A stretch of DNA of 64,000 nucleotides, taken from Nannocystales bacterium (GTDB lineage Bacteria; Myxococcota_A; Polyangia; Nannocystales; Nannocystaceae). Of this stretch, positions 1 through 19,265 are shown piece after piece (position 1 is the first letter of the stretch; every line of letters starts with the position of its first letter). The notes beneath the pieces were generated by a model. It made no database searches. It was given only the letters and a program-made list of their open reading frames with translations, and was not told the origin of the DNA. The stretch lies in NCBI GenBank assembly GCA_050633305.1, contig JBOEGF010000017.1, positions 14,433-78,432 on the forward strand. Reading direction: 5' to 3'. Made by a program: the position numbers and the translations under genes.

Positions 1-43
1 GAGGCACCGCGCCAGCAGGCGAGCCGCACAACCTCTGCCCTCC
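1..43 (+). repeat. 3' end of ~170-bp dispersed repeat, copy 1 (cut by window edge)
   Basis: GAGGCACCGCGCCAGCAGGCGAGCCGCACAACCTCTGCCCTCC matches the 3' end of the copies at 2950, 7723 and 11750. Confidence 0.9.
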
Positions 44-86
44 AACAGCAGGCCGGAAAACCCCCCCGCCCTTCACACCACCTTCG

Positions 87-120
87 CGACCGACCGACCG
101 ACCGACCGACCGACCGACCG
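87..120. repeat. (CGAC)8 tetranucleotide microsatellite
   Basis: Eight perfect CGAC units at 87-118 followed by CG. Confidence 0.95.
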
Positions 121-146
121 GACTCCAGGCGCCCCACAACCGGGCG

Positions 147-719
147 ACCACCGCAGGCCACTTCGTCCGCTTCCTCTTCGAAGACTTCGGAGACCAAGCC
201 CCTCAGCAGCTCATCGACGGCACGCCCCCCGAAGACATCATCGGCCTCTCCCTCGCCCAGCTCACCGCCCTGTACGAAGCCGAGGCCCCGCACTCCTACC
301 CCCCCCCCCCCCGGGACCCCTGCCCCGACCCCCTCGCCCCCAAGCTCGACGACACCACCTGGGCCGACACCTACAACTTCTCCTGCCAGAGCCCCGACGC
401 CTCCCAGTTCGAGGGCACAGGCGCCGGCATCGTCCGCATCCTCGAGCTCGAGGAGCCCGGCGACTACCACGTCCTCGTCGAGGGCGGTGACGGCGTCCGC
501 ATCGTCGGCTGCCAGATGGACGACACCGACCAGCCCACCCCCGACTTCTCCCACGGCGACATCATGAACCAGGCCGAACTCAGCCAAACCGCCTTCGGCA
601 CCTTCTTCGACTCCGACACCCCACACACCCTCCAGCTCACCGAGGGCCGCTACCGCCTCGCCCTGTCCTCCGAGCACAACGACGACACCCGGATGTCCCT
701 CCGCGTCACGAGACGTTGA
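147..719 (+). pseudogene. N-terminally truncated paralog of the gluzincin-like lipoprotein at 1827-2879
   Basis: The frame reads TTAGHFVRFL...LYEAEAPHSYPPPPRDPCP...HTLQLTEGRYRLALSS...MSLRVTRR. This aligns with VTAGHFARYL...DYEREAPAAYPPRHPCP...HELQLTAGTYRVAMSS...MRLRLRR. The signal peptide and HExxH part are absent, and there is a C14 tract at 299-312. Confidence 0.75.
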
Positions 720-752
720 TCGGCCCCCCTCACGAAACCAGGAGTTCTGGGT

Positions 753-1355
753 TCAGCCTTCCCAGCGGACAAGAAAGCTGTCGAGTGCCGGGCTGTTGGG
801 CGTCTGCAGCTCGACTACATATGCGTCGAAATCATCGACGACCAGGTCAAGGAACTTGTTCGGGCTAACGACGAAGTGATCGTCATCGAAGGTGAGCGCC
901 TGCTCGTGGCGGTTCTCGATTTCGACGCCGTGCTTGGTCATACCGTCATGGAACAGCCCACACCGAACCCTTCCGTAGAAGGCCTTGGCTTCTGCTTCAA
1001 GCACCCAGGGAAAGATCCGCCGAAGAGCCTGAACCACGAACGCCGTCGAGTTGTTCTTGCTGGACTGACCGTTGCGGAACTGTTGATTTCCCTCAAGGTA
1101 TCCCACGGCGACCATGAGCACGACAAAGCCCGCGTCATGGTGCTTACGAAGGTGTTCGCCCCATCGAAGGAACCAACCGCGGACACGGTCCTCGTACTGG
1201 CGGACAGATGTGAGGGGGTCCTCTTTGTCCAGCCAGCCCTGATGTTCGTTGTCCCAGACTCTGTCCGGCCAGGCCTCGAAAACCTTGCAGTGCAAGCCGA
1301 CGGCTCGGTGCGGGAGGTTCTCGTCGGGAGGGCACGGCAACTCCATCGACTTCAT
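753..1355 (-). CDS. Stand-alone HEPN-like protein (putative RNase/toxin)
   Basis: About 200 aa from ATG 1355 (GGGGATAGG upstream). Helical GFVVLMVAVGYLEG segment and an Rx4H motif (RCGLFH) as in HEPN domains. Confidence 0.55.
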   Translation of the reverse strand: MKSMELPCPPDENLPHRAVGLHCKVFEAWPDRVWDNEHQGWLDKEDPLTSVRQYEDRVRGWFLRWGEHLRKHHDAGFVVLMVAVGYLEGNQQFRNGQSSKNNSTAFVVQALRRIFPWVLEAEAKAFYGRVRCGLFHDGMTKHGVEIENRHEQALTFDDDHFVVSPNKFLDLVVDDFDAYVVELQTPNSPALDSFLVRWEG

Positions 1356-1555
1356 CCTATCCCCAGCAAGACGTTCAACCGCCCATTTCGCATCGTGAGT
1401 CGAACAGGACACCACCACGGATCCCCGACTCTCCGCCGAGAGTGCCCACAAGATCAGACACTCGCCACTTTCCGGGCCGGCCCCCCGGGTCATCGTTCTT
1501 CACGCAAGCACGCTTCGAGTGGCTCCGCGACCAGCGCCGGCCTACCCTTCCCGTA

Positions 1556-1837
1556 ATGCAGGAGCACATCGGAGTTCGAATCCTTCTTGTCATCGTCGCC
1601 GCAGTGAGCCTCGGGTACGGCTGCAACGGCAACGGATGCGGCCAAGACAAACCCACGTATGATGGCAACGACATCCAGTGCGGAGGATGTGAGCGAATCG
1701 CCGTCGTTTGTGAAGGAACCCCGATCAGAGTCGAGTGCGTCTCGTCTGTCCAGGAGGCGTTGCCACAGTTCAATTGCACCCCGGCTCAGACGAGAGACTG
1801 TCGGCCTGGCGGTGGTGGGTCCGGTGGTGCGAGCTAG
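1556..1837 (+). CDS. Small Cys-rich putative lipoprotein
   Basis: Hydrophobic stretch ending LGYGC, then several Cys. TACCCT lies 7 nt before the ATG. Confidence 0.55.
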   Translation: MQEHIGVRILLVIVAAVSLGYGCNGNGCGQDKPTYDGNDIQCGGCERIAVVCEGTPIRVECVSSVQEALPQFNCTPAQTRDCRPGGGGSGGAS

Positions 1838-2879
1838 CTGGGCCACCGTTGCCGCGCTCGCCTGCGCCCCAGGATGCGCCGACGACTTAGACCTGCCCCC
1901 GCTGAGCATCGAGACGGAACGAACACGCATCGCCGTTGGCGACGGCGAACACCTCCCCTGCGCCGGCGACCTTGCCGCCCTCGATGCGCATGTCGGCGAA
2001 CTCGAACATCTCTCCGGACTACGAGAGCCCGAACCACTCCAAGTCTTCTTGCTCTCCGACGTCACCGACATCTGCGGTGGCGACGGCGTGATCGCCTGCG
2101 AAGGAGATGGCCAGATCTTCGGCGCGTGGATGAGCGTGCGTCACGAGGTTGGCCACGCAATCGCCTCCCCCGCTCTCGACTTCGGTGGCCGCGCTTTCCT
2201 CTCCGAGGGATACGCAGAACTCGCCGCGGGCCATACCAGCCGCAAAAGCACCATCCCCATGCGGGCTGACGACCTCGACCAGGCGGAGCTGGCCAACTAC
2301 GTCACCGCCGGCCACTTTGCCCGATACCTCGTGCAGACCCACGGCTGGACCACCTACCAAGACGCCGTCGCGAGCGGAGACGTGGAGTCTGTCCTCGGCC
2401 AGCCGCTCCATGTCCTCGCCGACGACTACGAGCGCGAAGCCCCCGCCGCCTACCCCCCTCGGCATCCATGCCCCTACCCAGAGTTGCCCAGGATTGACGA
2501 TGGCCTCTGGCAGGAGTCGCTGACCTTCTCGTGTGCCTCGCAACAGGCCACCCAGTACGAGTTCCCCGACTTCTCGGGCACCGACGGCGCCGCCGTCTGG
2601 CGCTCCGTCACCCTCGATGCCGGCACCTATTCACTCGAGGTCGAGGGCGGCGCCGAGGCCGTCGTCCTCGGGTGCCATACCGACGTGCTGTCCGACTTGC
2701 CCGAGCCCCCCTCAAACGGAGACGTCTGGAACGAGGTCGACCAACGACCCGCCACCACCTTTGCTGCCGGAGTCGAGCACGAACTCCAGCTCACCGCCGG
2801 GACCTACCGCGTGGCGATGTCCTCCGGGAACGAAGGCGAGGAGACGATGCGCCTGCGATTGCGTCGTCTCGAGCGGTGA
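1827..2879 (+). CDS. Lipoprotein with gluzincin (peptidase MA-like) zinc motif
   Basis: Lipobox-like ALACAPGC, HEVGH (HExxH) and a downstream EGYAE motif. GTG start inferred. Confidence 0.7.
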   Translation: MRASWATVAALACAPGCADDLDLPPLSIETERTRIAVGDGEHLPCAGDLAALDAHVGELEHLSGLREPEPLQVFLLSDVTDICGGDGVIACEGDGQIFGAWMSVRHEVGHAIASPALDFGGRAFLSEGYAELAAGHTSRKSTIPMRADDLDQAELANYVTAGHFARYLVQTHGWTTYQDAVASGDVESVLGQPLHVLADDYEREAPAAYPPRHPCPYPELPRIDDGLWQESLTFSCASQQATQYEFPDFSGTDGAAVWRSVTLDAGTYSLEVEGGAEAVVLGCHTDVLSDLPEPPSNGDVWNEVDQRPATTFAAGVEHELQLTAGTYRVAMSSGNEGEETMRLRLRRLER

Positions 2880-2949
2880 GCAGAACTGGCGCTGAAGAGA
2901 GCCGCCCCCCTGGAAGACGGCCTCCGCCGAGGAATAGAACCTCCGCCCT

Positions 2950-3119
2950 TCCCCACCGAAGCCCACAGCCGCGAAGCCGCGCCAGCGGAGGGCCCACGCC
3001 GACTCCGAGGACCCGAGCTGCCCACAACCCCCTCCCACCACAATGGCACCGGCGACACCCCGCAGGAGGCGGCGGGGAGGCACCGCGCCAGCAGGCAAGC
3101 CGCGCGACCTCTGCCCTCC
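2950..3119 (+). repeat. ~170-bp dispersed repeat, copy 2
   Basis: Seven mismatches in 170 nt with no indels versus each of copies 3 and 4 (manual alignment). Confidence 0.97.
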
Positions 3120-3355
3120 GCGATCACCCCGCGACCAGCCCTCGCCGTCCACCGACTCCGACAATCCACCGCTGCCACCCGACTCGCCGCAACCGCGAGC
3201 CCAGGCAAGAGCCTGAGCACGGACCCCTCTCGGACCGGCCCGCCGCGCTCCCGCGCTCCAAGCGGCAACAACAGCCCTTCGCGTCTCACAACGGCGCTCT
3301 TGATGCCGAGCCCCCCTCTCCCAGCATCGAGCACGACTCTCTCGCCCGCCGCACA

Positions 3356-4171
3356 TCAGTTCGCGTTGTACCCGTGCACCCTCGAGAGCAGGAGTTCCTT
3401 CCAGTGCGACTCCCGCCCGAGCACATCACTCTCGCTCGCCCGCGTGTCTGCAGTCTCCAACACCCCGAACACAAAGTTCGACGCGTACGCCTCTCCCTTC
3501 TCGCGCAAAAGCGCCACCAGCTCACGGTTCCCCCCGTGCCCTGTCTTCGAGTACGAGCACCACCGCCCCCAGATGCCCGCCTCCCCCGTCGCGCTCCCCA
3601 CGTACAGCTTCCCGCTCGCGGAGTCCGCAATCACATAGACCCCCGCCACGCTCGACAGTGCGCTCTTCCACAACGCCGGCTGGTCCCCAACGATCGCGTC
3701 GAGCTTCCCTTTCGTCAGCCGGACCTTCACGAACCCCGGAAATGCCCCGACCTGCAGCCGCCTGGGCAGCAGCTCCGAGACCACCAGGTTATCCGTCCAC
3801 TTCTCCGCCAGCAGATACGACTGCCGGCCCGTTCTCTCGAACCGCACGACCAAGCGACCGTTGACAGCCTCCGCCGTAGCCCTCGATGTCATCTCGTACC
3901 GATACGCATCCCATTCGGCGACGAACTCATGCCCATGCACGTCGTGGACACCCGCAAACAACCAATGGTGGTTCTCGTCCATCGCGATGAGCGAAACCAC
4001 CAGCGGCCGCCCAAAGTTCTTCCTCGATTGGCGCGATTGCCAGGCCTCGAACCGCCCCTCGACAAACACGTCGACCGGATTCTCGAACCCGTTCCACCCC
4101 GCGAGATGAAGCTTGCACATCTCCGGCCGGATGCTGTCGTCATGGAGGCGAAGTACATCGAAGAGCTTCAT
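3356..4171 (-). CDS. GIY-YIG nuclease family protein
   Basis: C-terminal GVYVIAD...KLYVGSATG..GIWGRW..Y...GHGGN and RESHWKELL motifs. ATG 4171 is preceded by TACACT. Confidence 0.85.
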   Translation of the reverse strand: MKLFDVLRLHDDSIRPEMCKLHLAGWNGFENPVDVFVEGRFEAWQSRQSRKNFGRPLVVSLIAMDENHHWLFAGVHDVHGHEFVAEWDAYRYEMTSRATAEAVNGRLVVRFERTGRQSYLLAEKWTDNLVVSELLPRRLQVGAFPGFVKVRLTKGKLDAIVGDQPALWKSALSSVAGVYVIADSASGKLYVGSATGEAGIWGRWCSYSKTGHGGNRELVALLREKGEAYASNFVFGVLETADTRASESDVLGRESHWKELLLSRVHGYNAN

Positions 4172-4324
4172 TCGACAGCAGTGTAGACGAGCGCTGCTCC
4201 GGTCGTCTGTGCCCTGGTACCCACGTCGCCCTCCGCACCACGTGCGGCCCAGCACCAGCGCCCCCCTGTCCCCGCACGCACATTTTCCTGCGCCCCCACC
4301 ACCACCGCCCCTACCGTCTTGTGC

Positions 4325-5122
4325 ATGCCCGAGCTCAGAGCCCAACTCCTCCAAGAGATCAACGCCACCCCCAGCCCCGACCAACTCTCCCTCAGCGTCC
4401 CCATGCACGTACTCCTGGGTGAGGCCATTGACCTGGCCGCCTATGTACAAAGGCACTGGGAGCCCACCGACACCCATCCCGGCCTCTCCAGCGTCGCCCG
4501 GCGGTTCGACCAGGCCGTCGGCGACGACCTCATCGCCCTGGTCGACGCCGTGCAAACCGAGCACACCGCCTACCGCCTCGCCGCCGATCCCCCCACCTCA
4601 CGCGAGAGCGTCGAGCGAGGAGAGGCCCTCATCGACGAGCTCACCGCCTCCCTCGAGTTCTTGTTCGACGATGGCATCGACGACGAGCACGACTCCCAGC
4701 TCGACGCGATCAGCGACTTGTACGGCACCCGCTCCCGCTCCGACGACGCCCTCGCCGCCGCACTCTTCGACTTCGCCACCCTCGCCGACGCCCACAGAGC
4801 CGACCTCGACGGTGTCGGAGGCTTCAACCTCGCCGACATCGACGAAGCCCTCACCCTCGCCGCCGCGATCCGGGCCCGCTCCAGCACCACCCCCACCGAA
4901 CGCGCCGAGCAAGCCCGCGCCCACCGCCTGCGCCGCAACCAGCTCGCCACCGTCCTTCAGCAAAAGCTCAGGCTCGTCCGCGCCGCTGCCCGCTTCGCCT
5001 TCCGAGCCCACCCCACCCTCGCCCGCGCCGCCAGCAGTGCGTACCAACGCCGCGCCCGCGCCTCCCTGCGCCGCCGCAACGCAACCGCAGACCCCGCCCC
5101 GGCCCCCGACGTGACCGTCTGA
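4325..5122 (+). CDS. Hypothetical alpha-helical protein
   Basis: 265-aa ORF with strong C-ending codon bias. TACCGT lies 7 nt before the ATG. Confidence 0.75.
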   Translation: MPELRAQLLQEINATPSPDQLSLSVPMHVLLGEAIDLAAYVQRHWEPTDTHPGLSSVARRFDQAVGDDLIALVDAVQTEHTAYRLAADPPTSRESVERGEALIDELTASLEFLFDDGIDDEHDSQLDAISDLYGTRSRSDDALAAALFDFATLADAHRADLDGVGGFNLADIDEALTLAAAIRARSSTTPTERAEQARAHRLRRNQLATVLQQKLRLVRAAARFAFRAHPTLARAASSAYQRRARASLRRRNATADPAPAPDVTV

Positions 5123-5147
5123 CGCGCTCCGCGACGTCCCATGGAGT

Positions 5148-5220
5148 TCCCGGACACCTCAGACCTCTCCCGGACACCTCAGACCCCTTCCACGACACCT
5201 CCGGTCCTATCCCGGACAAC
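5148..5220. repeat. Degenerate 20-21-bp tandem repeat (about 3.5 units)
   Basis: TCCCGGACACCTCAGACC at 5148 and 5168, with decayed units at 5189 and 5210. Confidence 0.75.
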
Positions 5221-5453
5221 GGGAACGTTCAGTCCTCGTCGTGGGTCGTCCCCGCCGAGCACGACCCGACGAACGCCCACGTGGCCGTACCGGGTGGACA
5301 GGCGGAGCCAACCTCCCCACGGCGAACCTCGACAGGCATTGGTGTCGCGTCAGGCCCGGTCGATCAAACGTTCTGCGACCGGAGGCAGAAAGGCCGCCCT
5401 CGCTCGACGCCGCATGGATCCAGAGCGACACTCTGCGGACTACCCGGATCGAC

Positions 5454-5996
5454 ATGCCGCACTGGAAGACAGCCATTGCCCCCCTCGTGCTCGTCGTTTC
5501 ACTTGTCAGCTGTCAGCGCGCGCCGCAGCAGAGTTCCGCGACGCCACAGAGCATGGCGACGACGCCTGTTCCTGAGGCGCCACCCCGCCCCCAGGAGTCT
5601 ACGGCCGCCCAGGCCGAATTCGACATCGACTCCGTTGCCAGCACGCTGGAGCCGCTCGTGCGGTGCCGTGGCAATGAGGTGTTGTGGGGCGACGCGTGCG
5701 CCTCTGCTCCGGACGTCCTTGCACAGCTCGCGGACACGTACCCGATCCCCGCCGAACTCCTCGAGTGTGGTGCATCCTTCGCGGCCTGTCGGCACGCGAA
5801 GACTCTCTGCAAGCTACCGAATGAGGTGATGGCTGGTCACTCGGGGCAGAGTGTAGCGGTCGCCGAACTCGCGGACGCGTTGTATATGTACGGGGAGAAT
5901 GGCCTGTCCCGGAAGTGCTCGATCCGCTCCCTGGGAGGATGCGAGGAGTTCCGTCGCTACCCCAAAGACTTCCCCGACTGTCGGGCACGAGGGTAG
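5454..5996 (+). CDS. Cys-rich lipoprotein
   Basis: MPHWK-hydrophobic-LVSC lipobox, a Pro/Gln/Thr linker and multiple Cys. Confidence 0.7.
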   Translation: MPHWKTAIAPLVLVVSLVSCQRAPQQSSATPQSMATTPVPEAPPRPQESTAAQAEFDIDSVASTLEPLVRCRGNEVLWGDACASAPDVLAQLADTYPIPAELLECGASFAACRHAKTLCKLPNEVMAGHSGQSVAVAELADALYMYGENGLSRKCSIRSLGGCEEFRRYPKDFPDCRARG

Positions 5997-6164
5997 TCTC
6001 AAGGTCGCACAAGGAGGCCAGGCATGGCGTGTGACGCAGAACGAACGAACGTAGAGTTTCTTGAGCTCCTCGAAGAAATGGCAGAACGCGAGAAGAGTGT
6101 CCCGTTTTAGACCCCAATAGACTGATCCTCAGCCAACCACCGACAGGGTAGCCTCGCCCCCTCG

Positions 6165-7715
6165 ATGGATCCGGCCATACTGATCGCAATTGGCGTTTGC
6201 CTCGCCCTACTCCTCGGCCTCGCTATCGCACTGTTGTTGGCCCGAAGATCCGCCACTCTCGCCACCGCACGCGCCGAAGAATCCGAACGGCAAGCGGCCG
6301 CCCTGCGCCCGTACGCCGTCGTCCCCGACGCCCAGGCAGAAGCCAACAGAATCCTCCAGCACGCCCAGGCATCCGCACAACAAATGGTTTCCGAGGCCGA
6401 CGTCGCAGCGCGAGCCGCCGTCACCACCGCCACCACCGAAGCCCAGGCGATCACCAGCCAAGCCCATGAGCTATCCGCAGCGAAGCAGGCAGAGTCCGCC
6501 TCGCTGATCGAGCACGCTCGGCAAGAAGCGGAGCGAATCGCAGGCGATGCCCTCCGCGCCCGGGACAAGTCCGAAGATTACAGACAGGCCGCTCGCGCCA
6601 TGAAGAACATCGTCGACGGCTACGGCGAGGAAGTCTGGGTCCCGGGCACGAGCCTCCTCGATGACCTCGCCGACGAACTCGACTATCAGGAAGCCGGCCG
6701 TCGACTCAAGGAAGCCCGACAACGGACCCGCGACATCCTCAAGGCCTCAGGCGCCTCCGAGTGTGACTACAAGGAACGGGTTCGGCGCGAGACCGCCATG
6801 CGGTTCGTCGCCGATGCCTTCAACGGAAAGGTCGATTCGATCCTCTCCAAGGTCAAGCACGACAACTACGGAAAGCTCGAAGCGTCGATCAACGACGCCT
6901 TCGCCATCGTCAACCTCAACGGACAGGCCTTCAAGAACGCCCGAATCACCCAGGACTACCTCGCCGCGCGTACCGACGAGCTCCAGTGGGCCGTCCGAGC
7001 CATGGAGCTCCAAAAGCGCGAACGAGAGGAGCAGCGCCGGATCAAGGACGAGCTCCGCGAAGAGGAGCGGGCTCGAAAAGAGTTCGAGAAAGCGATCAAG
7101 GCTGCCGACAAAGAGGAGCGCGCCGTCCAACGTGCGATGAAGGCCGCGCAGAAGCACTTGGCCGAGGCAACTGAGGCGCACAAAGCCAAGTACGAGACCC
7201 TGATCCAGGAACTGCAGGGCAAGCTTGCCGAGGCCGAAGCCAAGGGCCAACGAGCCCTCTCCATGGCCCAGCAGACCCGGCGCGGCCATGTCTACGTCAT
7301 CTCCAACGTCGGCTCCTTCGGCGACGGTGTCTACAAGATCGGCCTCACCCGCCGCCTCGAGCCTCGCGACCGCGTCAAGGAACTCGGAGACGCCAGCGTC
7401 CCCTTCGAGTTCGACATCCACGCCATGATCCAAGCTGAGGATGCACCAGCCCTCGAGTCCAAGCTGCACCGCCGCTTCGTCGGCGCTCAGGTCAACAAGG
7501 TCAACAGCCGCAAGGAGTTCTTCCGCGTCTCCGTCTCCGACATCCGCGACGTCGTGAACGAAATGGGAATCGAGTGCTCGTGGACCATGGCCGCCGCCGC
7601 ACGCGAGTACCGAGAGTCGCTCGCCCTGGCCAAGAAGGGCACGACGGCCGAACCCGGACTGCGGCCGAAGCAGAACGTCGATGGCCTGCCCCTCTCGGCC
7701 CCACCACCCGCATAA
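6165..7715 (+). CDS. DUF4041 + T5orf172 (GIY-YIG-like) domain protein with N-terminal TM and coiled coil
   Basis: GHVYVISNVGSFGDGVYKIGLTRRLEP.DRVKELGDASVPF.FDIHA and VNKVN.RKEFF signature, plus a long coiled coil. Confidence 0.92.
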   Translation: MDPAILIAIGVCLALLLGLAIALLLARRSATLATARAEESERQAAALRPYAVVPDAQAEANRILQHAQASAQQMVSEADVAARAAVTTATTEAQAITSQAHELSAAKQAESASLIEHARQEAERIAGDALRARDKSEDYRQAARAMKNIVDGYGEEVWVPGTSLLDDLADELDYQEAGRRLKEARQRTRDILKASGASECDYKERVRRETAMRFVADAFNGKVDSILSKVKHDNYGKLEASINDAFAIVNLNGQAFKNARITQDYLAARTDELQWAVRAMELQKREREEQRRIKDELREEERARKEFEKAIKAADKEERAVQRAMKAAQKHLAEATEAHKAKYETLIQELQGKLAEAEAKGQRALSMAQQTRRGHVYVISNVGSFGDGVYKIGLTRRLEPRDRVKELGDASVPFEFDIHAMIQAEDAPALESKLHRRFVGAQVNKVNSRKEFFRVSVSDIRDVVNEMGIECSWTMAAAAREYRESLALAKKGTTAEPGLRPKQNVDGLPLSAPPPA

Positions 7716-7722
7716 ACTGGGC

Positions 7723-7892
7723 TCCCCACCGAAGCCCACACCCGCGAAGCCGCGCCAGCGGAGGGCCCACGCCGACTCCGAGGACCCGAGCCGCCCACAA
7801 CCCCCTCCCACCACAATGGCACCGGCGACACCCCGCAGGAGGCGGCGGGGAGGCACCGCGCCAGCAGGCGAACCGCGCTACCTCAGACCTCC
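7723..7892 (+). repeat. ~170-bp dispersed repeat, copy 3
   Basis: Starts 7 nt after the stop at 7715. Its 3' flank AAGAGCAGGCCGGGAACCCCC resembles the flank of copy 1 (44-65). Confidence 0.97.
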
Positions 7893-8197
7893 AAGAGCAG
7901 GCCGGGAACCCCCTCGTCCCCCCCTTCCAGGACTGCGGCTGGCGGGCCTGGCAGGTGACTGGGATTTCCGTACGAACAGCGGCCCGAAACCAACAAACCT
8001 CGCCCCGATCTTCATCACCAAACCGGCACACCCGTACGCGTGGTCGGGCAGCGACAACTGCTCCCCCGGACACGACCCAGACATCGACGCGGAGAGCACA
8101 GTTACAGCTATCGACGACGCTCTTTTCTCGGTGGACAATCATCGCAGCCACAAGTGGCGTCAACAACAAGGAACAACCGGGCATACACGGGAGACAG

Positions 8198-8872: not shown

Positions 8873-9125
8873 ACACAGATGAGGGGCACTACGCGTTCAC
8901 GGTCCCGAACCTCGGCGGACACCTTCGGGCACTCCAGAGCCCAGATCGGGAACTCGACGACGATGCATAGCGGTCATGACACCCCTTTGCGCCGGCTCCT
9001 GCTCCATTGCTCCACGGATGTTTCAGGCCGCGCTCACGCTCGTTGTCGGCTATGTTGAGTTCGGTGGCGTCTCCTTTCGTCGCACGCTCAACCGTCTCCA
9101 ACCCGCATTTCGTCACAGCCCCGCC

Positions 9126-9851: not shown

Positions 9852-10376
9852 AGCAGCCGCACGAACGGCGCCGACAGCCGACTCGGGCCACGCGCAACGC
9901 CACCGAGCACCCGTTCTCCCCTTGATGAAACGAGGGTGCCAAGCCCGCATCAACCGCAACGCGAGACGAGCCTAGGAAGCGCCATGTCGACGATGGGCGT
10001 GCTGCCGTCAAGAGGCGGGAGCTCCTTCCCTCGGACTCTTCCATCTGTTTTCGCGTGTTGACCTCCGGACTGGCCCGTACCAGGCTTTCAGCGGCGGAGC
10101 CAGAACGCAACCCGATGCGAAGAAGGGAAGCGCAACAAGACCTCCGGAACGCTCGCTTTTGTTCGCGGCCCGCGCCTTTGTCGCACGAGGCCCGTCAGGC
10201 TCACGGAGGCGGAGTTTGACCCCTCGTGGAGTCGAGCACGAACGTCCGCCCCTTCGGCGCCTCGCCTCCGCCAAGGGCGTGGTTCGCCGGTCTGCTCCTG
10301 ATGGCGGCGAGTGCCGGCCAGTCGACGCGCAGGGAACTCACCGGCCAAGGTACCTGGGCGAGGCCTGCCCCCGCAT

Positions 10377-11114
10377 CTAAAGGTTGAAGGCGGCCACATC
10401 CACCTCGTCCGTGCTCGATGTAGGAATGCGATTGCGCGACAGCACTTCGCCGTCCTCTCCATCAGGCGCATCCGCCCCCGGACCCGTGCCGTAGACGTAG
10501 TCGTAGTCGTAGTCGTAGTCGCAGTTTCCGTGCTGGCACTCCTCGTTCGCCCCACAGGCATACCCACACTCGCCGCAGTTCTCGAAAGACGTGTCGAGGT
10601 CAACGCAGGCCCCTCCCGGACACGCGGCCTCGCCGGAGGCGCACAGGCTCAGCTCGACCTGTTCTGTCGCCTGTTGGCCGTTGTTGTCCAAGACCTCCAC
10701 ACTCAGAACGACTGGCGTCTGAACGCCGTCATAGAGTTCCGAGAGTTCTTGAAACGACACCGCATAGACGAATGTCCCCCCCGCGACCTGAGCGAAGGCA
10801 CCAAGAACAACCCCCTCATGACGAATGACCACGCCGACGAGTTCGTCGAGAGAGTCTTCATGGGTCACCTGCACCGTCAACTCCAGGACGCCGTTGCTGC
10901 CGAGGGTCTCGGTACTCACGGTAACCTCGACGATCTGCGGGCCACCACTGGACCCGCCCCCCTCGCTCTCGTCCGCGGTCGTATTCGGCACTGCGGAGGT
11001 GGCCTCAGTCTCGCCACCATCCCCTCCCGCGCCATCGTCGGGGTCTCCAGAGTCACAAGCACCGAACACGAGCGCGGTACCAGTACAAACGCGAATGACT
11101 GCCTTCCTGAGCAT
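10377..11114 (-). CDS. Lipoprotein with Cys-rich (STIG1-like) module and (DY)n tract
   Basis: FGAC lipobox and CVDLDTSFENCGECGYAC. DYDYDYDY is encoded by (GTAGTC)n at about 10497-10520. Confidence 0.7.
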   Translation of the reverse strand: MLRKAVIRVCTGTALVFGACDSGDPDDGAGGDGGETEATSAVPNTTADESEGGGSSGGPQIVEVTVSTETLGSNGVLELTVQVTHEDSLDELVGVVIRHEGVVLGAFAQVAGGTFVYAVSFQELSELYDGVQTPVVLSVEVLDNNGQQATEQVELSLCASGEAACPGGACVDLDTSFENCGECGYACGANEECQHGNCDYDYDYDYVYGTGPGADAPDGEDGEVLSRNRIPTSSTDEVDVAAFNL

Positions 11115-11302
11115 CGGCTCCAAGCTAGCACCTCCCGGCGTTGGAGTGACGCCGTTCCCCCTCCAAGGTATCGGATTCAACCGCGACGGAGTCCGAGTCA
11201 TCCGATGAGGATCGGCAACGTTCGTCCGGCGGGAATCGCAAGGCCGGCTTGAGCCGCACGGCCCCTGGGGCGCCGTTCTGCAGATTGTGGCAGAGTCTCT
11301 CG

Positions 11303-11731
11303 GTGGCGCGGACCTACAACGAGGACGAGGTTGCCCTGATCCTCGCGAGTGCCGCCGAGCGGGCCCGGCGGTCCAAGCAGTCCGGAGTGACCCTCGCCGA
11401 GCTCGAAGCCGCCGCACACGAGGCGGGTCTCGACGGGCCCCTCGTTCGGCAGGCCGCGATGGACATCGCACGGGTCGACATCGAGAGTCGCGAGGAAGGC
11501 CTGTATGGCGCCAGTACTCGGTTGGTGTCCCGCGCGGTCATCGAGGGCAGGTCCGACATCGAAGCGATCGCGACACGCCTCTGTGCCGAGATGGTGGACC
11601 AAGCGGGCGAGCCGGGCTCTCAAAGCAAGGTCGGCGAGGCACGCGTGTGGCAAACGAGCGGGTTTGGGAGCGTCGAGGCGGGGCAGCAGGCTCGCCGACC
11701 AAGCACGGGCGCTGGCTTCCACCTCAGCTGA
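11303..11731 (+). CDS. Hypothetical protein, possibly C-terminally truncated
   Basis: YNEDEVALIL..AAE...GVTLAELEAAAHEAGLD...VRQAA resembles the N-terminus of a family I recall as longer and membrane-associated. It ends just before repeat copy 4. Confidence 0.55.
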   Translation: MARTYNEDEVALILASAAERARRSKQSGVTLAELEAAAHEAGLDGPLVRQAAMDIARVDIESREEGLYGASTRLVSRAVIEGRSDIEAIATRLCAEMVDQAGEPGSQSKVGEARVWQTSGFGSVEAGQQARRPSTGAGFHLS

Positions 11732-11749
11732 GGACGAAGTGAACTGGCC

Positions 11750-11919
11750 TCCCCACCGAAGCCCGCACCCGCGAAGCCGCGCCAGCGGAGGGCCCACGCC
11801 GACTCCGAGGACCCGAGCCGCCCACAACCCCCTCCCATCACAATGGCACCTGCGACACCCCGCAGGAGGCGGCGGGGAGGCACCGCGCCAGCAGGCGAGC
11901 CGCCCGACCTCTGCCCTCC
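11750..11919 (+). repeat. ~170-bp dispersed repeat, copy 4
   Basis: Near-identical to copies 2 and 3, and preceded by AACTGGCC like copy 3 (AACTGGGC). Confidence 0.97.
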
Positions 11920-12177
11920 GAGATCAGGCCAGGCAAATGCCCCGCCCCCACAACCCCCTCCGATTCCATCGGATGCCCGCTCAAGACCAAGGCACTCAGC
12001 TCCCGACACCGCCGAACAAACCAAGACCGGGCACATCGCTGGCGACCAACGGACGAGGTCCGCCAAGAAGACGGGATGCGCCCCCGCGGCCGACGACGAA
12101 ACTGACTCGCGACTCATCCGAGGCTGCGCAAGACTGACCGGTGGCCCCCTGCGACAGGTCGATGGTAGCGTGCGTCG

Positions 12178-13218
12178 GTGAGCGTGCCCTTGGGGGTTTC
12201 TGTGGTGGGGCTGGGCGGCCGGTGTGCCGTCGGTCGGTACGCGGACGCCATCGCGACCGCTGTGCGGGCGGGAATCACCCGTCTCCAGGAGCACGAGTAC
12301 ATGGTCGACAACGCAGGGGACCCCTTCCGGGTCGCCTACGACCCAGCGCTGACCACCCCGACCCGGCGAGCTCGCGTCGGTGAACTTGCAGAATCCGCAC
12401 TCAACTCCGTGCTCGCGGACCTGGAGACCCGAAGGTACGACCGAGCGGTCCCCCTGTTGCTCTGCCTCCCCAGCCCCTGCGATACCTGGACCCAGGCCGA
12501 CCGGATGTGGCTCATGGCCGCGCTCGTCAAGACGGCCGAAGCGAGGCAGCTGGAGCTACGGCCGCAGCTGGTCAGCGCGAGTGGGAACGCAGCGGGTGCC
12601 GTCGGACTTCAGCTCGCGTGCGAGCAAGTTCGCAAGGGCGAGTGCTGCATCCTGCTCGGCGCGGACTCGTTCATCGATCCCGACGTGCTCGAGCCGCTGG
12701 ATGAAGCCGCCGAGCTGATGTCGCTGACGAACAAGTGGGGATTTCCCCCGGGCGAAGGCGCCGCGGCCCTGTTGCTGGTCGAAACTCGACGAGCCCGGAG
12801 CATGTCGCTCAGGCCCATCGCAGAGATTCACGGTCTCGGGGTGACGCGAGAGTCCAATCCGAAGCACAGCGATGGCATTTGCACCGGTGTTGGGCTTTCC
12901 CAAGCCTTCGCAGCTGCAGTGCGAGGTCTCGGCGGGCCAGTCGATTGGCAGTACTGCGACATCGATGGGGACCGGTACCGGGAGCACGAGTTCTCGTTTG
13001 CCTTGCAACGAGCCCACGCCAGCATGTTCGCCGACGCCACAGGCTACGTCTCCGCAGCCGATTGCTGGGGCGCCGTGGGCGCTGCAACGATCCCGTTGCT
13101 CTCTCTGCTCGCGATCACGCCGAGCCTGCGCACGCCTGCGGGTACCGCACTGGTGTGGGCCGGGTCCGAGGATGGGCTCCGCGGCAGCATCGTGTATCGT
13201 TGTGGGGCCGGACGATGA
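12178..13218 (+). CDS. T6SS-associated thiolase/3-oxoacyl-ACP-synthase-like adaptor protein (PRK06147-type)
   Basis: AAVRAGI-like start, GADSFID, GFPPGEGAAALL, DIDGDRYREHE and WGAVGAA motifs. It is coupled to a DUF4150 gene. Confidence 0.85.
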   Translation: MSVPLGVSVVGLGGRCAVGRYADAIATAVRAGITRLQEHEYMVDNAGDPFRVAYDPALTTPTRRARVGELAESALNSVLADLETRRYDRAVPLLLCLPSPCDTWTQADRMWLMAALVKTAEARQLELRPQLVSASGNAAGAVGLQLACEQVRKGECCILLGADSFIDPDVLEPLDEAAELMSLTNKWGFPPGEGAAALLLVETRRARSMSLRPIAEIHGLGVTRESNPKHSDGICTGVGLSQAFAAAVRGLGGPVDWQYCDIDGDRYREHEFSFALQRAHASMFADATGYVSAADCWGAVGAATIPLLSLLAITPSLRTPAGTALVWAGSEDGLRGSIVYRCGAGR

Positions 13219-13604
13219 AAGTCGCTGTCAACCCACCACGCACCCCGTGCACCGAGGGTAGCAACGGCCTCAAGGTCGCGGCTCTCCCCAACGTCTGCAA
13301 GATGCCCGGACCCCCGGCACCGTTCGTTCCAACTCCGCTACCCAATATCGGGAAGTCGGGCGACTCGCCCAAGGGTTACTCGAAGAAAGTGAAGTTCGAG
13401 AAAAAGAAGGTGGCGATCAAAGGGGCCAGCTTCAAGAGCATGGGTGACGCGGCGAGCAAGGGCACAGGCGGCGGCTTGATCTCTGCGAGCACACATGACG
13501 TCTGTGAGTTCGTGGGTCCCGGCTCCATGAACGTCAAAGTCGAGGGCAAGGCGGTCCAGCTGCTCGGCGACGTGATGACGAACAACAAGAAGAACGCGAT
13601 GTGA
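13215..13604 (+). CDS. Stand-alone DUF4150 (PAAR-like) protein
   Basis: PNVCKMPGPPAPFVPTPLPNIG...SMGDAASKGTGGGL...NVKVEGKAV.LLGD...NN. ATGA overlap with the upstream gene. Confidence 0.9.
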   Translation: MKVAVNPPRTPCTEGSNGLKVAALPNVCKMPGPPAPFVPTPLPNIGKSGDSPKGYSKKVKFEKKKVAIKGASFKSMGDAASKGTGGGLISASTHDVCEFVGPGSMNVKVEGKAVQLLGDVMTNNKKNAM

Positions 13605-13613
13605 GCGGGTCGC

Positions 13614-14366
13614 TCAGAACACCTCGACGCTGCGGATCGGCGCGAACGTGTCGTGGATCGCTTGGACGACGTTGAGCAACGCGTCGTAGGCACCCTCGAC
13701 GACGCCTGAATCCTCGAGGTACACCAGAGCAACGCCGGCCTCGACCACCCACCCCTCGTGTTCGACTGGAAGCAAGAAGCCATGTTCTGGCTTCGCGTCG
13801 GGATCGCGAAAAGCACAGGTCGCCGCTGCATCGAGCCATAACTGTAGGCTCGCGAGCGCTCGCTCGAGATCCGTCTGTTCGTCGACGAACGTGACGTGAA
13901 CCTCGACGGACGCGCTCGTGCGGTCGTCGTCGATCGCGAATCCCAACTGGGGCCAAAGGGGTGGCAGCGCGTCGCGATCGAAGCTCAGGCCCTGCGGATC
14001 GCTGCCGGAGCATTGCACCCAAACTGCCCGGACCTTGCTGCGGAGCGCGAAGTCGACCGCGTTGAGCAGACCCAGCACCGCCCGCGGATCGATGGCCAGC
14101 TGCTTGAAGTCCCAGCTCAGCCGCGAGGCGCCCGCGGCTGCAATCGACGGACCCGCGAAGTCGGCCCTTCCTGCGTCGGGCGCGACTTGGTCGCCACCCC
14201 AGCCCCCTACGTTTGCGAGTTCCGCCCAGGTCTCGATGACGTATTCCAGCACCGCACGTTCGTTCGGGTCGGCGGGCTGGTGCAGGTCGAGGGTGAGCCG
14301 CGCCGGCGTGCCCGCTTTCGGGTCGCCCGCAAGGTCGGCGCGAAAGGGCCATCCGGAGAGGTTCAA
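13614..14366 (-). CDS. Hypothetical protein, possible second immunity/accessory protein
   Basis: 250-aa ORF overlapping the stop of the DUF3396-like gene by 4 nt. Confidence 0.6.
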   Translation of the reverse strand: MNLSGWPFRADLAGDPKAGTPARLTLDLHQPADPNERAVLEYVIETWAELANVGGWGGDQVAPDAGRADFAGPSIAAAGASRLSWDFKQLAIDPRAVLGLLNAVDFALRSKVRAVWVQCSGSDPQGLSFDRDALPPLWPQLGFAIDDDRTSASVEVHVTFVDEQTDLERALASLQLWLDAAATCAFRDPDAKPEHGFLLPVEHEGWVVEAGVALVYLEDSGVVEGAYDALLNVVQAIHDTFAPIRSVEVF

Positions 14367-15289
14367 GCGTCCAACCTCGTGAGCCAGTCTTGCTCGCGAT
14401 CAGGATCGGCAACGTAGCCCTGGTCTGGATCTCGTGCGAACCCCTTGAGCGTCCACTCCTGGGTTCGAATGGGCTCGAGCGCCGCGTTGATCGATCGCAG
14501 CGCGTCCAGGGTCTCGTTGGGCCGATTCACGTCACACGGATCGGGTGCGTCCCCAGCCGCCAGGAGAATGCCGTCGCCAAGATCCTCCCTCCGTACACCG
14601 TCTTGCAACGCATCGAGAGCGCCAGGGCCGAGAACCTCGAGGCTGTCGGCCCCCACGTAGTTGAGCCAACCGACGGTATCCATGGTCTGCTGGCTATCTT
14701 GCATGAACGCGATGTGTTCGCGATAGAACACGCGAACGCCGTGAAACCGGAGCCCGGTTCGCAGGACGGGAGCGTACACGAGCTGGGCTTGCTCGTTGAA
14801 CCAGGCCACCTCAAACCCGAACCCAGCGGCCGCATGCGAAAAGGCGTGCGCAGAACACCACGCACGAAACAGCGCCTCGAGCTCGGCGGGGTCGGTATCG
14901 AGGGGAAGCGTCAGATGCATGTACGATCGAGCGGTCTTGGTGATCAGCATCTCGAAGCTGTGGCCATGACACTCATCAATTGCGCCCTTGGGGTCCGCTG
15001 TCTTGAAGTAGTAGTGCTGATAGGATGTTTCGAGCGACTGCTCGGAAAACACATCGCGGACCTTCTTCACCGCCTTGGGGGTGAGCTTCATGATCCGCCG
15101 ACTGTTGTCGTGGCTGTAGTATAGCGGCGTCTTCGGTTCGAAACGCGCCAGCCAGTCTTCGAAGCAGGCGAGGCCGGCCTGGGCCAGTCCCGCGTTGCCG
15201 AAGAAGAGGGCACTCAACGCAGGTCGCCCCACGACGATGGTGTCGTCGAGTTCGGTGTACGTGGCGATCGTTTCGGTCCAGGACTTCAT
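14363..15289 (-). CDS. DUF3396 (TsiV-like) immunity protein
   Basis: HAAAGFG, RFHGV, TVGWLNYVG, ILLAAGDAP..DVN and WLTRLD motifs. Directly downstream of the toxin gene. Confidence 0.75.
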   Translation of the reverse strand: MKSWTETIATYTELDDTIVVGRPALSALFFGNAGLAQAGLACFEDWLARFEPKTPLYYSHDNSRRIMKLTPKAVKKVRDVFSEQSLETSYQHYYFKTADPKGAIDECHGHSFEMLITKTARSYMHLTLPLDTDPAELEALFRAWCSAHAFSHAAAGFGFEVAWFNEQAQLVYAPVLRTGLRFHGVRVFYREHIAFMQDSQQTMDTVGWLNYVGADSLEVLGPGALDALQDGVRREDLGDGILLAAGDAPDPCDVNRPNETLDALRSINAALEPIRTQEWTLKGFARDPDQGYVADPDREQDWLTRLDA

Positions 15290-15290
15290 A

Positions 15291-15908
15291 TCAGTGAACG
15301 ATGGTGATGGTGGGACCGCCCCCGGTCGCCTGACCTAGCGCCGTATGGGCCCGGGCCTGGCGAGCACTCTGCCTCGGTGGCCGGTAGCGTTTGACCGTGC
15401 TCTTCTTCTTGCTGCGGTTGGAGGCCGGGCAGGCGAACTTGAAGTCGACGAAGGTCTGCTCGCCGTTGGGACCGATCACCGACGCGTCGGGAAACACGAG
15501 CCCCGAAAGCGCTTTTCCAATTGCCTTTCCAATCGCCTTGCGTCCTCCTCCCGCCGCTCCCGCGATTGCCGCAGAGATGACCGCGCCTCGGTTCACGCCC
15601 TGCGGCGTGGCGTTGACGGGTTGAACGGTTTGGCCGGTTGCCTGATTGAAGCGCGGCCGCTTGAAGGCCTCTTCGCCGCGGACCGGGGGCTTGCCGTCAC
15701 TTGGGTTCTTCGCCCGGTGTTCCTGAATCTTGTCTTCGCAACACGCGTGCTTGTCCTGTCCGAGCTTCTGGCAGGTTCGCCGCTTCTTCTTGTTGGCGAT
15801 GGTCTTGGCGTTCTTGGCGTTCTCTTGCTTGCTACAGTCGTCGGCGATCTGGTCGAGCAGCGCTACACCGGTGCTCGGTACGCTCGGAGACTGCCCAAGG
15901 ATCGTCAT
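15291..15908 (-). CDS. Putative PD-(D/E)xK nuclease toxin (about 205 aa)
   Basis: Basic protein with LGQDKHACC and FPDASV...FVDFKFACP. A G-rich SD-like stretch precedes ATG 15908, and a DUF3396-like gene follows. Confidence 0.7.
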   Translation of the reverse strand: MTILGQSPSVPSTGVALLDQIADDCSKQENAKNAKTIANKKKRRTCQKLGQDKHACCEDKIQEHRAKNPSDGKPPVRGEEAFKRPRFNQATGQTVQPVNATPQGVNRGAVISAAIAGAAGGGRKAIGKAIGKALSGLVFPDASVIGPNGEQTFVDFKFACPASNRSKKKSTVKRYRPPRQSARQARAHTALGQATGGGPTITIVH

Positions 15909-15941
15909 CGTGTTCCCCCTGGTGTACCATCCAACAGCCTC

Positions 15942-16952
15942 ATGTGGGAGCTTCGGAACCGGACACCGTTCGTCGCCGAGTGGACCGCGGTCCTGGACAA
16001 GGACGGAGCACGAAGCTTCGTCGTGGTGGTGAAAGGAACCTTCGCGATCGACCCCGACGGAACGACGAAGCTTGCGGACGAGCAGCTGCCGATCGACGTC
16101 GCGCCCGAGTACCACGACGACCCCGAGGACTCGAGCCTGCGGTGCGAAGGCGAGCTCACCGCGATGAAACCGGGCACGGACATCGTCGTGCATGGCTCCG
16201 CCATTCCAGCCGAGGGCAAGCCGGTCACACGCATGACGGTGGTGTTGCAAAGCCCAGCAGGCCGGAAATCCCTCCAAGTCTTCGGCGATCGACGATGGAG
16301 CCGTAGCGTTGCAGGAACGATCGAGCTTGAGCATCCGGTGCCGTTCGTCGAGATGCCCATCGTCTACGAGCGGGCAGAGGGCGGCTTCGATAAGAAAGAC
16401 CCCGACCCGGCGGCCCACCGGCTCGAACCCCACAACCCCGTCGGCACCGGGTTCTTCACATCCGACTCGCACAAGGTGGGCGAGCTCGCGCCCAACATCG
16501 TTTGGCTCGAACGCAACCAGCCCGGACCAGCAGGGCTGGGGCCGACGTGTCCGCACTGGAAGCCTCGCTGCGACTTCCAGGGAACCTACGATGCGCAGTG
16601 GGTCGAGTCGCGTCGCCCGCTGCTGCCCGAGGACTACGACGCGCGATTCTTGATGAGCGCGCCCGCCGACCAGCAGTGCCAACCCCACCTGCGCGGGGGC
16701 GAACCTCTCGCCGTCTCCGGCATGCACGCCGATGGCGTCGTGCGATGCACGGTGCCCAAGCACTACCTCGCGTTCTCGACCCACATCGGTCCGCGTGTCC
16801 GCGAACACCGAGCCAAGCTCGTCACTGTCGGGCTCTTCCCCAACGACCGACTGCTATCCCTCACGTGGCAAACGGAGTTGGCTTGCCATCACGAATTCGA
16901 TGACATCGACCATACCGTCATCCGCGAGCTCCCCTATCTCGACCAAGGCTGA
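15942..16952 (+). CDS. DUF2169 T6SS adaptor/chaperone
   Basis: LRNRTPF...VVVVKGTF, KPGTDIVVHG, VFGDRRW, MPIVYERA.GG, NPVGTG, GTYD..W...R.PLLP.DYD.RF. Confidence 0.92.
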   Translation: MWELRNRTPFVAEWTAVLDKDGARSFVVVVKGTFAIDPDGTTKLADEQLPIDVAPEYHDDPEDSSLRCEGELTAMKPGTDIVVHGSAIPAEGKPVTRMTVVLQSPAGRKSLQVFGDRRWSRSVAGTIELEHPVPFVEMPIVYERAEGGFDKKDPDPAAHRLEPHNPVGTGFFTSDSHKVGELAPNIVWLERNQPGPAGLGPTCPHWKPRCDFQGTYDAQWVESRRPLLPEDYDARFLMSAPADQQCQPHLRGGEPLAVSGMHADGVVRCTVPKHYLAFSTHIGPRVREHRAKLVTVGLFPNDRLLSLTWQTELACHHEFDDIDHTVIRELPYLDQG

Positions 16953-17122
16953 CGCCAACCAACCTTTTTTGGCCTGGACCGTCAGGTTTTGGGCCGGCCC
17001 AGCAAAGATCAATTGAGGATTGGTGCGTCGAGTCGAGGCACGTGCGAGCGCCACCGGAAAAAGCCCCGAGAGCCCCACCCCGGCCTTGCCTGGCCCAGGT
17101 TGTTCATGGGAACAAAAAGGCG

Positions 17123-17701
17123 ATGGCGTCTGGGTCCGTTCGGTGGGGTTCGTGTTCTCGATGGGTCGCTGCAATTGCGATCGCTGGCACACTGCCAGCG
17201 TGCGATGTCCCGGCCGAGGAATGCGACGGTGCGTTTCGGTCGGCTGAGCTCGAGGGCCTTGATGAAAGCCCGAACAGCGGCCCTCAACCTGGGGCCATCG
17301 ACGCCACCTATGGGACCCCGGACATCTTCTGTCCAGAGTGTGGGAGCCACTGGACCGTGTCCGGGGGGAGCGCAGTTGGAGGGGGCATCAGCGCTGGCGA
17401 TTTCGTCGTCTACCTGGACGCTGACCTCGGCAAGTCCATCTCCGACCTCGCTGAGACTGGCTCGTTGTACTACCAGCACAAGCGTGGCCAGTTCGACACC
17501 GTGCGCGCTGGACCGGAACAGGGCTACATCCTCCCCATCCACGGGTTGCTGCCGGACAATGCCGACCATCTCTCCGCAGCGCACTTCGGTCCGGGAACCG
17601 CCACGCTCGTGATCGTCCACGAGAAGGTCCCGGTCTTTATCCGACTGCAATACGTCAACAATGCGAACGGCGAGTTCGAGGATCCGCCCGACTTCAACTA
17701 A
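17123..17701 (+). CDS. Hypothetical lipoprotein
   Basis: IAIAGTLPAC lipobox-like sequence and coding-like codon bias. Confidence 0.55.
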   Translation: MASGSVRWGSCSRWVAAIAIAGTLPACDVPAEECDGAFRSAELEGLDESPNSGPQPGAIDATYGTPDIFCPECGSHWTVSGGSAVGGGISAGDFVVYLDADLGKSISDLAETGSLYYQHKRGQFDTVRAGPEQGYILPIHGLLPDNADHLSAAHFGPGTATLVIVHEKVPVFIRLQYVNNANGEFEDPPDFN

Positions 17702-17773
17702 ACCGGTCATGAGACCCCGGGGGCCCGCGCGCCCGACCGTTGCCTTGCGAGGTCAGGCACGGCAGAAGCACCG

Positions 17774-17849
17774 CCCCACCACAATGGCACTGGCGACCCC
17801 CCGCAGGAGGCGGCGGGGAGGCACCGCGCCAGCAGGCCAGCCGCGCGAC
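17774..17849 (+). repeat. Truncated (3' half) copy 5 of the ~170-bp repeat
   Basis: CCCCACCACAATGGCACTGGCGACCCCCCGCAGGAGGCGGCGGGGAGGCACCGCGCCAGCAGGCCAGCCGCGCGAC. Confidence 0.92.
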
Positions 17850-17954
17850 GCAAAGGGGTCCGCCGAACTTCCCGGTCGCCCCCCGATCCGCGCCCAACCG
17901 ACACAGCGCGGCCTCCCGCACGCTGCAGCAGAAAGTGTGGTTCCTAAGCGCGCG

Positions 17955-18479: not shown

Positions 18480-18679
18480 TGCGAATACTGTGGATTGCAG
18501 GAAGGCGTTTCACGGCCAAGACCGCCGACCAAGAACGCGTCGAGTGGGCCCGGCCACGAGGCCAGCCCCCCATCAAAGGGGTGCTCACACGCGGTCGTTG
18601 CCCCACACCGCGAACCGTTCCCGATTTTCTCCAAACCTCTCCGTGATCGTTCCCCGCGGGAGTTCGTCTACCCCCGGCG

Positions 18680-19198: not shown

Positions 19199-19207
19199 GA
19201 CGAATCC

Positions 19208-19233
19208 CGGGGTCGGCATCAACACCGACCCCG
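19208..19233. terminator. Hairpin between convergent genes, probable terminator
   Basis: CGGGGTCGG, an 8-nt loop, then CCGACCCCG: a perfect 9-bp stem. No clear U-tract. Confidence 0.6.
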
Positions 19234-19265
19234 CAGTCGCACTCAGGGGTGTTTTCGTTGGGAGG

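Follow-up and report, generated by a model that had tools for sequence, protein, structure and literature searches.

A co-oriented repeat array in a Nannocystales accessory zone: a likely site of frequent single-strand breakage and error-prone repair, suggested to rearrange nearby genes

The locus described here lies in an assembly of a Nannocystales bacterium (GCA_050633305.1, hereafter G000; 11.0 Mb, 66% GC, 90 contigs, 92% complete), in which a window of 64,000 nucleotides (C17:14433-78432, where C17 is contig JBOEGF010000017.1) was analysed. The first 17,849 nucleotides of the window hold five co-oriented copies of a ~170-nt repeat, with modules between them that include defence, competition and lipoprotein genes. 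Most repeats of its family stand at the centre of a C and A excess on one strand that extends into adjoining genes; within ~0.5 kb of a copy, synonymous sites drift towards C on the repeat strand, whatever the direction of the gene. The features of the region are listed below by window position (or by position on C17). Skew stands for (C+A-G-T)/N and refers in the list to fourfold-degenerate sites, for which 3828 open reading frames (ORFs) served as reference (99th percentile 0.42). L024, L026 and L027 are near-conspecific contigs, 93-97% identical to G000 where alignable; X2, X3, X5 and X8 are Logan contigs, from a comparison spanning four studies.

C17:13885-14349: 5′-truncated PDDEXK_11 nuclease gene ahead of copy 1; skew +0.62
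1-43, plus strand: 3′ part of repeat copy 1 (5′ part at C17:14362-14430, beyond an NN gap)
44-147, plus: tail of copy 1, with diverged forms in L024 and L026; holds a GACC micro-tandem run
148-719, plus: 3′ half of a lipoprotein gene; skew +0.81
753-1493, minus: unskewed gene of no known family, likely a recent arrival
1875-2879, plus: lipoprotein paralogue lipoB; skew +0.53; a 95% identical copy in L024 has different neighbours
2913-2949, plus: 9-nt microhomology join GAAGACGGC (2913-2921), then the duplicated last codons of the PDDEXK_11 gene
2950-3119, plus: repeat copy 2; family core at 2971-3096, covarying stem arms at about 2993-3006 and 3065-3077
3356-4171, minus: UzuA-like GIY-YIG defence gene (UzuA E 6e-57); G-rich on its own strand, equivalent to +0.51 on the repeat strand
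4325-5122, plus: helical protein not assigned to a family; skew +0.78 (C8 paralogue +0.03)
5454-5996, plus: putative lipoprotein; no skew; a recurrent strain breakpoint (6095/6098) lies just downstream
6165-7715, plus: PD-Lambda-1-like defence gene (DUF4041 + T5orf172; E 4e-115); skew +0.55
7723-7892, plus: repeat copy 3
8195-11731: module 3, with three Cys-rich or lipoprotein-like genes and one 3′-truncated gene (11249-11731, just before copy 4; most homologues are frames of 242-260 aa); no skew
11750-11919, plus: repeat copy 4; its tail also stands behind the second L026 copy
12178-16952: type VI secretion system (T6SS)-type module (ketoacyl-synthase-like, Tox-PAAR-like, TsiV immunity, putative toxin tip, DUF2169), with an internal block (about 13602-15908) in the opposite orientation; no skew
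17042-17701, plus: lipoprotein-like gene (C49 paralogue, 74%); no skew
17774-17849, plus: repeat copy 5, 3′ half only

When the repeat was compared with the whole assembly by BLASTN, six pieces were recovered, all on C17 and all on the plus strand, confirming the five same-strand copies of the original prediction as a cluster at one locus and in one orientation; as had also been claimed, the rest of the window holds no copy, and none was found elsewhere in the 11.0-Mb assembly by BLASTN, nhmmer or two covariance models. Seven of 170 nt separate copy 2 from copy 3, and likewise from copy 4, as predicted; between copies 3 and 4 there are 8 differences. The placement of copies 2-5 at 7-72 nt past a plus-strand stop codon also stood (70 nt for copy 2, or 13 nt if the duplicated nuclease-gene end is counted, and 7, 18 and 72 nt for copies 3, 4 and 5). 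AACTGG, by contrast, which had been noted ahead of copies 3 and 4, is not a conserved box of the repeat, since it occurs 11 times on the plus strand of the window and is not found upstream of the copies in L024, L026 and L027. A scaffold gap (NN, C17:14431-14432) interrupts copy 1, so that the window starts at an assembly join within the repeat, and further copies or modules may therefore be hidden at this point. Diverged, decaying 3′ tails are common to the copies, and the duplication of one ancestral copy together with its flank is thus likely to fit them better than separate insertions. The 14.4 kb to the left of the window are also accessory (VgrG, DUF2169 and SIR2 genes), and a genus-conserved backbone, shared with five congeners, resumes at about 27,780. 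The notion that the repeats split an accessory island into modules therefore holds for the DNA between copies but not for the island as a whole, since the accessory zone is larger than the array and extends beyond the repeats on both sides, with the repeats in its middle.

Co-oriented sites past stop codons and strain-variable, defence-rich cargo, the latter foreseen in the original prediction and borne out by the UzuA and PD-Lambda-1 matches and the PAAR/TsiV module, are features of integrons and of clusters of attC sites lacking an integron integrase (CALIN). An origin of the array as such an integron-like cluster is, however, largely refuted and was judged extremely improbable. No IntI was found above the cut-off anywhere in the 92%-complete genome (TIGR02249 best score 83.6 bits versus a cut-off of 265), in agreement with the claim that no integrase is present, and no pair of R″/R′ boxes (RYYYAAC...GTTRRRY) surrounds copies 2-4, again as predicted, with one unpaired site near copy 5. 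The array shows neither an R/L box pair nor a fixed crossover; its modules hold 2-7 genes on both strands, with truncations, which does not match single-gene integron cassettes (one single-gene unit is seen, in X5), and the repeat family is dispersed in other genomes.

Comparison of module content and order, which had been proposed as a check, revealed differences in L024, L026, L027 and the Logan contigs; the locus shuffles cargo among near-conspecific strains. In L024, an intact 398-aa version of the lipoprotein gene stands directly before the repeat, of which G000 keeps the 3′ half alone, after the repeat tail, and the nuclease gene of that contig has no repeat behind it. L026 has other cargo between two co-oriented copies, which stand 4.1 kb from each other, and its nuclease gene is full-length (frameshifted), while the downstream cargo of L027 comprises a toxin tip, an immunity gene and a serine recombinase. 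In X2 and X3 the repeat is joined to position 4317, directly ahead of the helical-protein gene; X2 further shows the PD-Lambda-1 gene cut at 7623 and joined to a copy, X5 has this gene as a single-gene unit between two copies, and in X8 the adjacency of nuclease end and repeat recurs. Breaks at 2921 and 6095/6098 are recurrent among the Logan contigs. Within the window, one joint has the 9-nt microhomology (2913-2921) and another, at 148, is near-blunt; many joints, formed by microhomology or blunt, lie away from the repeat, and those at 148, 2913-2921, 6095/6098 and 17774 are at no fixed place in it. With many joints off the repeat, and with neither an IntI, an attC box pair nor a cognate recombinase found, the locus is a plastic zone and not a strict cassette system.

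These comparisons bear on the idea of a true cassette system, in which a trans-acting single-strand recombinase (HUH- or RAYT-like, RAYT being a transposase associated with repetitive extragenic palindromes, REPs) would cut and rejoin folded copies, so that the intervening DNA is excised as a circle and inserted at another copy. Several cargo genes stop 7-18 nt ahead of a copy (also in L024), and repeat-bounded units exist in X5 and L026. Although the Pfam Y1_Tnp model gave no match in G000, this was a false negative: tblastn then found at least nine RAYT-like Y1 genes there, and genes of this RAYT-like kind are present in 35 of the 72 genomes of the myxobacterial family. For TnpA-REP, cleavage, strand transfer and tandem amplification on REP arrays and on arrays of bacterial interspersed mosaic elements (BIMEs) are shown or proposed; BIMEs are cleaved and strand-transferred in vitro, and the excision of circles has been suggested (PMC3333891). 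Such a system nonetheless seems unlikely, as the copies have decaying common tails and no sharp crossover, the joints occur at no fixed position of the repeat, other repeats accompany the Y1 genes, and in other genomes the family mostly takes the form of single or inverted copies. Of the non-integron cassette array or recombination platform originally envisaged, the shuffling, the single locus, the co-orientation and the lack of IntI remain; a dedicated cassette system is not supported, given the dispersal of the family, the joints off the repeat and the shared diverged tails. As a separate observation, multi-copy RAYT-like Y1 genes (C14:346660-347487, C24:173018-175933, C40:32797-33624 and others) are flanked by tandem inverted repeats of their own (GACCCAGGGTTGTT).

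The repeat belongs to a small non-coding, REP/BIME-like family whose members measure ~125-145 nt and have a covarying stem. A 221-nt query gave two 77% matches in 60 genomes, both single intergenic copies in genome G006; of the weak matches, that in G004 is a Ser/Thr-rich coding stretch and the others were unsupported by nhmmer. A pattern scan rendered two matches in genome contigs (both in G006) and five on four metagenome contigs; none of 14 pattern matches in viral contigs was upheld by the model, and plasmids gave no match. Family model R1 found matches in at least 5 of the 72 genomes of the myxobacterial family, and the wider model R2 in at least 9 of 72 (E≤0.01; four genera); in a class sample of 151 genomes (21 candidates scored per genome), at least two matched, G000 and G020. 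Both models score few candidates per genome, so genome and copy counts are lower bounds. G020 contains at least 16 and at least 45 copies of two subfamilies, often in clusters that face outward and have a tandem period of 220-340 bp. Outside G000 the family occurs as dispersed single intergenic copies or as inverted or tandem clusters (G006, G020, G064, G076); genome-wide scattering, named originally as an argument against an array, is thus absent from G000 but true of the family in other species. Next to one G006 copy lies a methyltransferase gene whose G000 orthologue is present without the element, contig L025 carries one copy in a ~500-bp stretch where the orthologous site of G000 is about 40 bp, and G002 has a lone copy in an accessory island similar to that of the window. 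Beside the G002 element lie five tandem 1.3-kb lipoprotein gene repeats, preceded by a long array of ~73-bp period (CRISPR-like) by a cas1-like gene and a reverse transcriptase gene (G002:C30:422300-426600 and 440500-447000; L052, L053).

Single copies fold no better than shuffled sequences (z -0.7 and -0.9); across relatives, however, the central stem covaries, and the element is not unstructured. Both sides had changed in 4 of 27 pairs, against at most 1 in partner-slid controls, and in a wider 16-sequence alignment the figure was 7 of 15. This supports the central stem but does not amount to a probability, the structure having been drawn from these same sequences, which are related to one another. 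The Rfam search that had been suggested assigned no family (no match at E≤1 in window 1-20000; at six relative loci, one chance miRNA match with E 0.92). A G-quadruplex was also considered and dropped, the G-tracts not being conserved in G006 and L025. As no paper on it was found in the open-access literature, the family appears to be undescribed.

One G025 locus (G025:C200:13800-14560, L042) raises another explanation, in which the repeat would represent a long subterminal end of an IS5-family element, and one-ended transposition dragging upstream DNA would have left the array behind. There, in a ~740-bp IS5 derivative, 170-bp inverted-repeat ends with the element bracket a transposase remnant inside IS5-like tips, and this single case recalls the arrangement of IS5-derived miniature inverted-repeat transposable elements (MITEs), with inverted copies around a transposase remnant and ends outward; outward-facing pairs in G020 and the 5′-truncated cargo would also fit. 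However, G025 is the one case among 30 IS5-protein loci, intact close IS5 relatives in G020 and G003 lack such ends, other element pairs bracket unrelated DNA, and the window copies have a single orientation and neither terminal inverted repeats nor a target duplication. The shared tails also speak against independent insertions, and this origin was rated very unlikely.

The compositional footprint was measured as flank skew, the mean skew within 300 nt of the element on the element strand (background SD 0.08). It was +0.18 and +0.19 on the two sides of 13 copies and +0.17 and +0.22 at 41 G020 copies (positive in 85% of 39 and 92% of 36). At 14 loci outside model building, from five genomes, it was positive in 13 upstream and 13 downstream, three of these loci having been looked at earlier in footprint work. 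Within the window, four plus-strand genes have fourfold-site skews of +0.53 to +0.81, and in the minus-strand UzuA-like gene the skew decays away from copy 2 (0.70, 0.43, 0.39). The other 11 genes tested between copies gave -0.06 to +0.18, and two genes to the right of copy 5, +0.17 and +0.24. Homologues away from the element were mostly near zero, with three PDDEXK homologues at +0.35 to +0.40 and one lipoprotein paralogue at +0.34. Around a single G006 copy, the profile is a two-sided peak (0.05, 0.08, 0.57, 0.76 | 0.65, 0.76, 0.20, -0.02).

Direct comparison of gene pairs pointed the same way. In the G006 methyltransferase pair, synonymous changes to C/A numbered 38 versus 3 within 450 nt of the element and 7 versus 16 beyond; polarised counts were 10 versus 3 in a G020 gene and 17 versus 3 in the 4325 gene, and further pairs gave 30 versus 10, 24 versus 10 and 20 versus 9, with one outgroup alone in several of these comparisons. 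Two unskewed cargo genes used as controls gave 13 versus 18 and 29 versus 22. On the element strand the commonest change was G>C, followed by T>C and G>A; since G/C swaps are the commonest background change too, the direction of change is informative and its type less so. Micro-tandem duplications were found within 300 nt at 10 of 20 element loci; the corresponding figures were 2 of 13 for far flanks and 8 of 400 for random sites, the latter an unmatched control in that these sites are mostly coding. The G020 flanks hold neighbouring copies. A sequencing artefact was rejected as the source of the skew: the changes are synonymous, 88% protein identity is kept, and the pattern recurs in independent assemblies. 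No paper on skew around bacterial repeats was found in the open-access literature.

A skew of this kind could also arise if the repeat were a passive passenger, a MITE- or REP-like sequence that prefers, in one orientation, tracts already skewed and was duplicated as a by-product in an unstable island. Most skewed tracts of G000 lack the element, two copies (L025 and G006b) lack a footprint, the accessory zone reaches far past the array, and the G002 copy is single in a similar island. On the other hand, the orthologous methyltransferase gene without the element is unskewed, and the G006 peak is two-sided and centred on the element. Moreover, skew tells long-associated cargo from other cargo within one island, and the skewed genes are those also found next to the repeat in other strains. 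A passenger role was accordingly regarded as improbable, to much the same degree as a cassette system.

The preferred reading, to which we assign a probability of roughly 0.55, is that a single ancestral copy was multiplied with its flanks, and that the copies act as homology anchors and, in addition, as places at which one strand undergoes repeated breakage or removal and is then resynthesized. The changes C>G, A>G and C>T on an exposed strand are the pattern expected of deamination and abasic-site bypass in single-stranded DNA. The element-strand changes G>C, T>C and G>A correspond to C>G, A>G and C>T on the opposite strand, from which we infer exposure of that strand and error-prone fill-in. 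One strand would thus be cut or removed again and again at a structured, non-autonomous element, exposing the other; error-prone fill-in would produce skew and micro-duplications; break repair at microhomologies would leave truncated modules; and host recombination between co-oriented copies would add, drop and reorder modules. Under this mechanism, skewed genes would be long residents and unskewed genes recent arrivals. The likeliest class of nicking enzyme would be an HUH (Y1) nuclease acting in trans. The PDDEXK_11 nuclease was rejected as a cognate enzyme, none of 14 homologue loci carrying the element, and of three reverse transcriptases in G000 none lies on C17. More tentatively, the elements may constitute a mobile local mutator, a cis-element family that subjects about 1 kb of surrounding DNA to micro-duplication and to a strand-specific hypermutation biased towards C and, when arrayed, forms a platform by which defence genes are captured, truncated and reordered without an integrase, with a footprint that dates cargo residence.

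Several results weigh against strand breakage at the repeat, besides the single outgroups and the unmatched duplication control mentioned above. Breakage, nicking and recombination are themselves deduced from sequence. L025 drifts the opposite way (43 versus 75), the G006b copy shows no drift (52 versus 51), one of the 14 new loci is negative, and in the G020 gene a polarised test restricted to fourfold sites was flat. At 27 Y1-gene loci no element lies within 1.5 kb (none below E 0.25), and the nine G000 RAYT-like loci carry unrelated inverted repeats of their own and show no skew. Finally, 45 of the 50 strongest G000 skew peaks are without a detectable element (the other five lie in the array), as are 23 of 27 extremely skewed G000 ORFs, several of which are Lys-rich repeat genes. 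The G000 peaks outside the array have no common element, and one G020 Y1 gene sits at a skew switch without an element. Element-free skew tracts are possibly footprints of lost elements. Strong one-sided tracts in ordinary genes, with no detectable element, were seen at C20:10200-11600, C9:52700-56100, C8:4900-8000 and C6:206700-207450 of G000; those on C20 and C8 adjoin foreign-looking DNA.

Set against known systems, the element resembles REPs, BIMEs and REPINs (paired REPs) in being non-coding, intergenic, stem-forming and patchy among species. Like REPs and BIMEs, whose clusters include flanking DNA (PMC3733652, PMC3116915, PMC5581495), it occurs as singlets, inverted pairs and tandem clusters with flanking DNA in G006, G020, G064 and G076, though not in G000, where there is one locus. 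REPs and BIMEs bear a terminal GTAG or CGTC tag; window copies 2-5 lack GTAG and read GCCAG; GTAG is found near the 5′ end in G020, G025, G064 and G076 variants, and both GTAG and CGTY in G020-B, G025, G064 and G076. The core of the element, however, spans 125-145 nt with internal loops, while a REP is a palindrome of 20-40 bp (PMC3733652); no RAYT gene is flanked by it at the 27 Y1-gene loci; the window units are 3-6 kb long and carry genes; and no strand-specific mutational footprint is mentioned in the passages of the REP literature cited here (PMC3333891, PMC3116915, PMC3733652). Given its size and the lack of RAYT linkage, the element was not classed as a REP. One-ended rolling-circle capture by IS91/ISCR elements also gives co-oriented repeated ends and variable truncated captured DNA, but the 10 Y2_Tnp matches of G000 lie elsewhere, the element models had no match at six Y2 loci, and inspection by eye showed downstream ends that bear no relation to the repeat. 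The element is a variant of the REP/BIME/MITE kind with a possibly new property, the mutational footprint.

Some further observations concern the surroundings of the array. In the T6SS-type module, the block with the toxin tip and two immunity-type genes runs opposite to the PAAR gene, with imperfect inverted repeats of 10 bp at its borders (13590-13604 and 15900-15915); it may be either a one-off inversion or a switch. To the right of copy 5 (17955-19198) lie two divergent paralogous small lipoprotein genes, 33-37% identical, and at 49734-50340 a lipoprotein-like gene has internal 12-bp and 132-bp tandem repeats. Left of the window, a SIR2-domain gene with weak ThsA and PDC-S25 matches (L001:9194-11023) adjoins the VgrG/DUF2169 cluster. 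A tRNA-His called by ARAGORN at 2919-2991 was rejected, as its stems are mismatched, it straddles a junction, and two other tRNA-His(gtg) genes are present.

The data suggest that single strands are likely to break often at the repeat, and that error-prone repair there reorders the genes around it. If a 130-nt element does bias the mutation of one strand in neighbouring genes, bacteria would have a form of local mutagenesis dependent on neither a reverse transcriptase nor a template, and estimates of codon bias and selection near such repeats would be distorted. It would also provide an integrase-free route for the turnover of defence islands, and a sequence clock telling old cargo from new.

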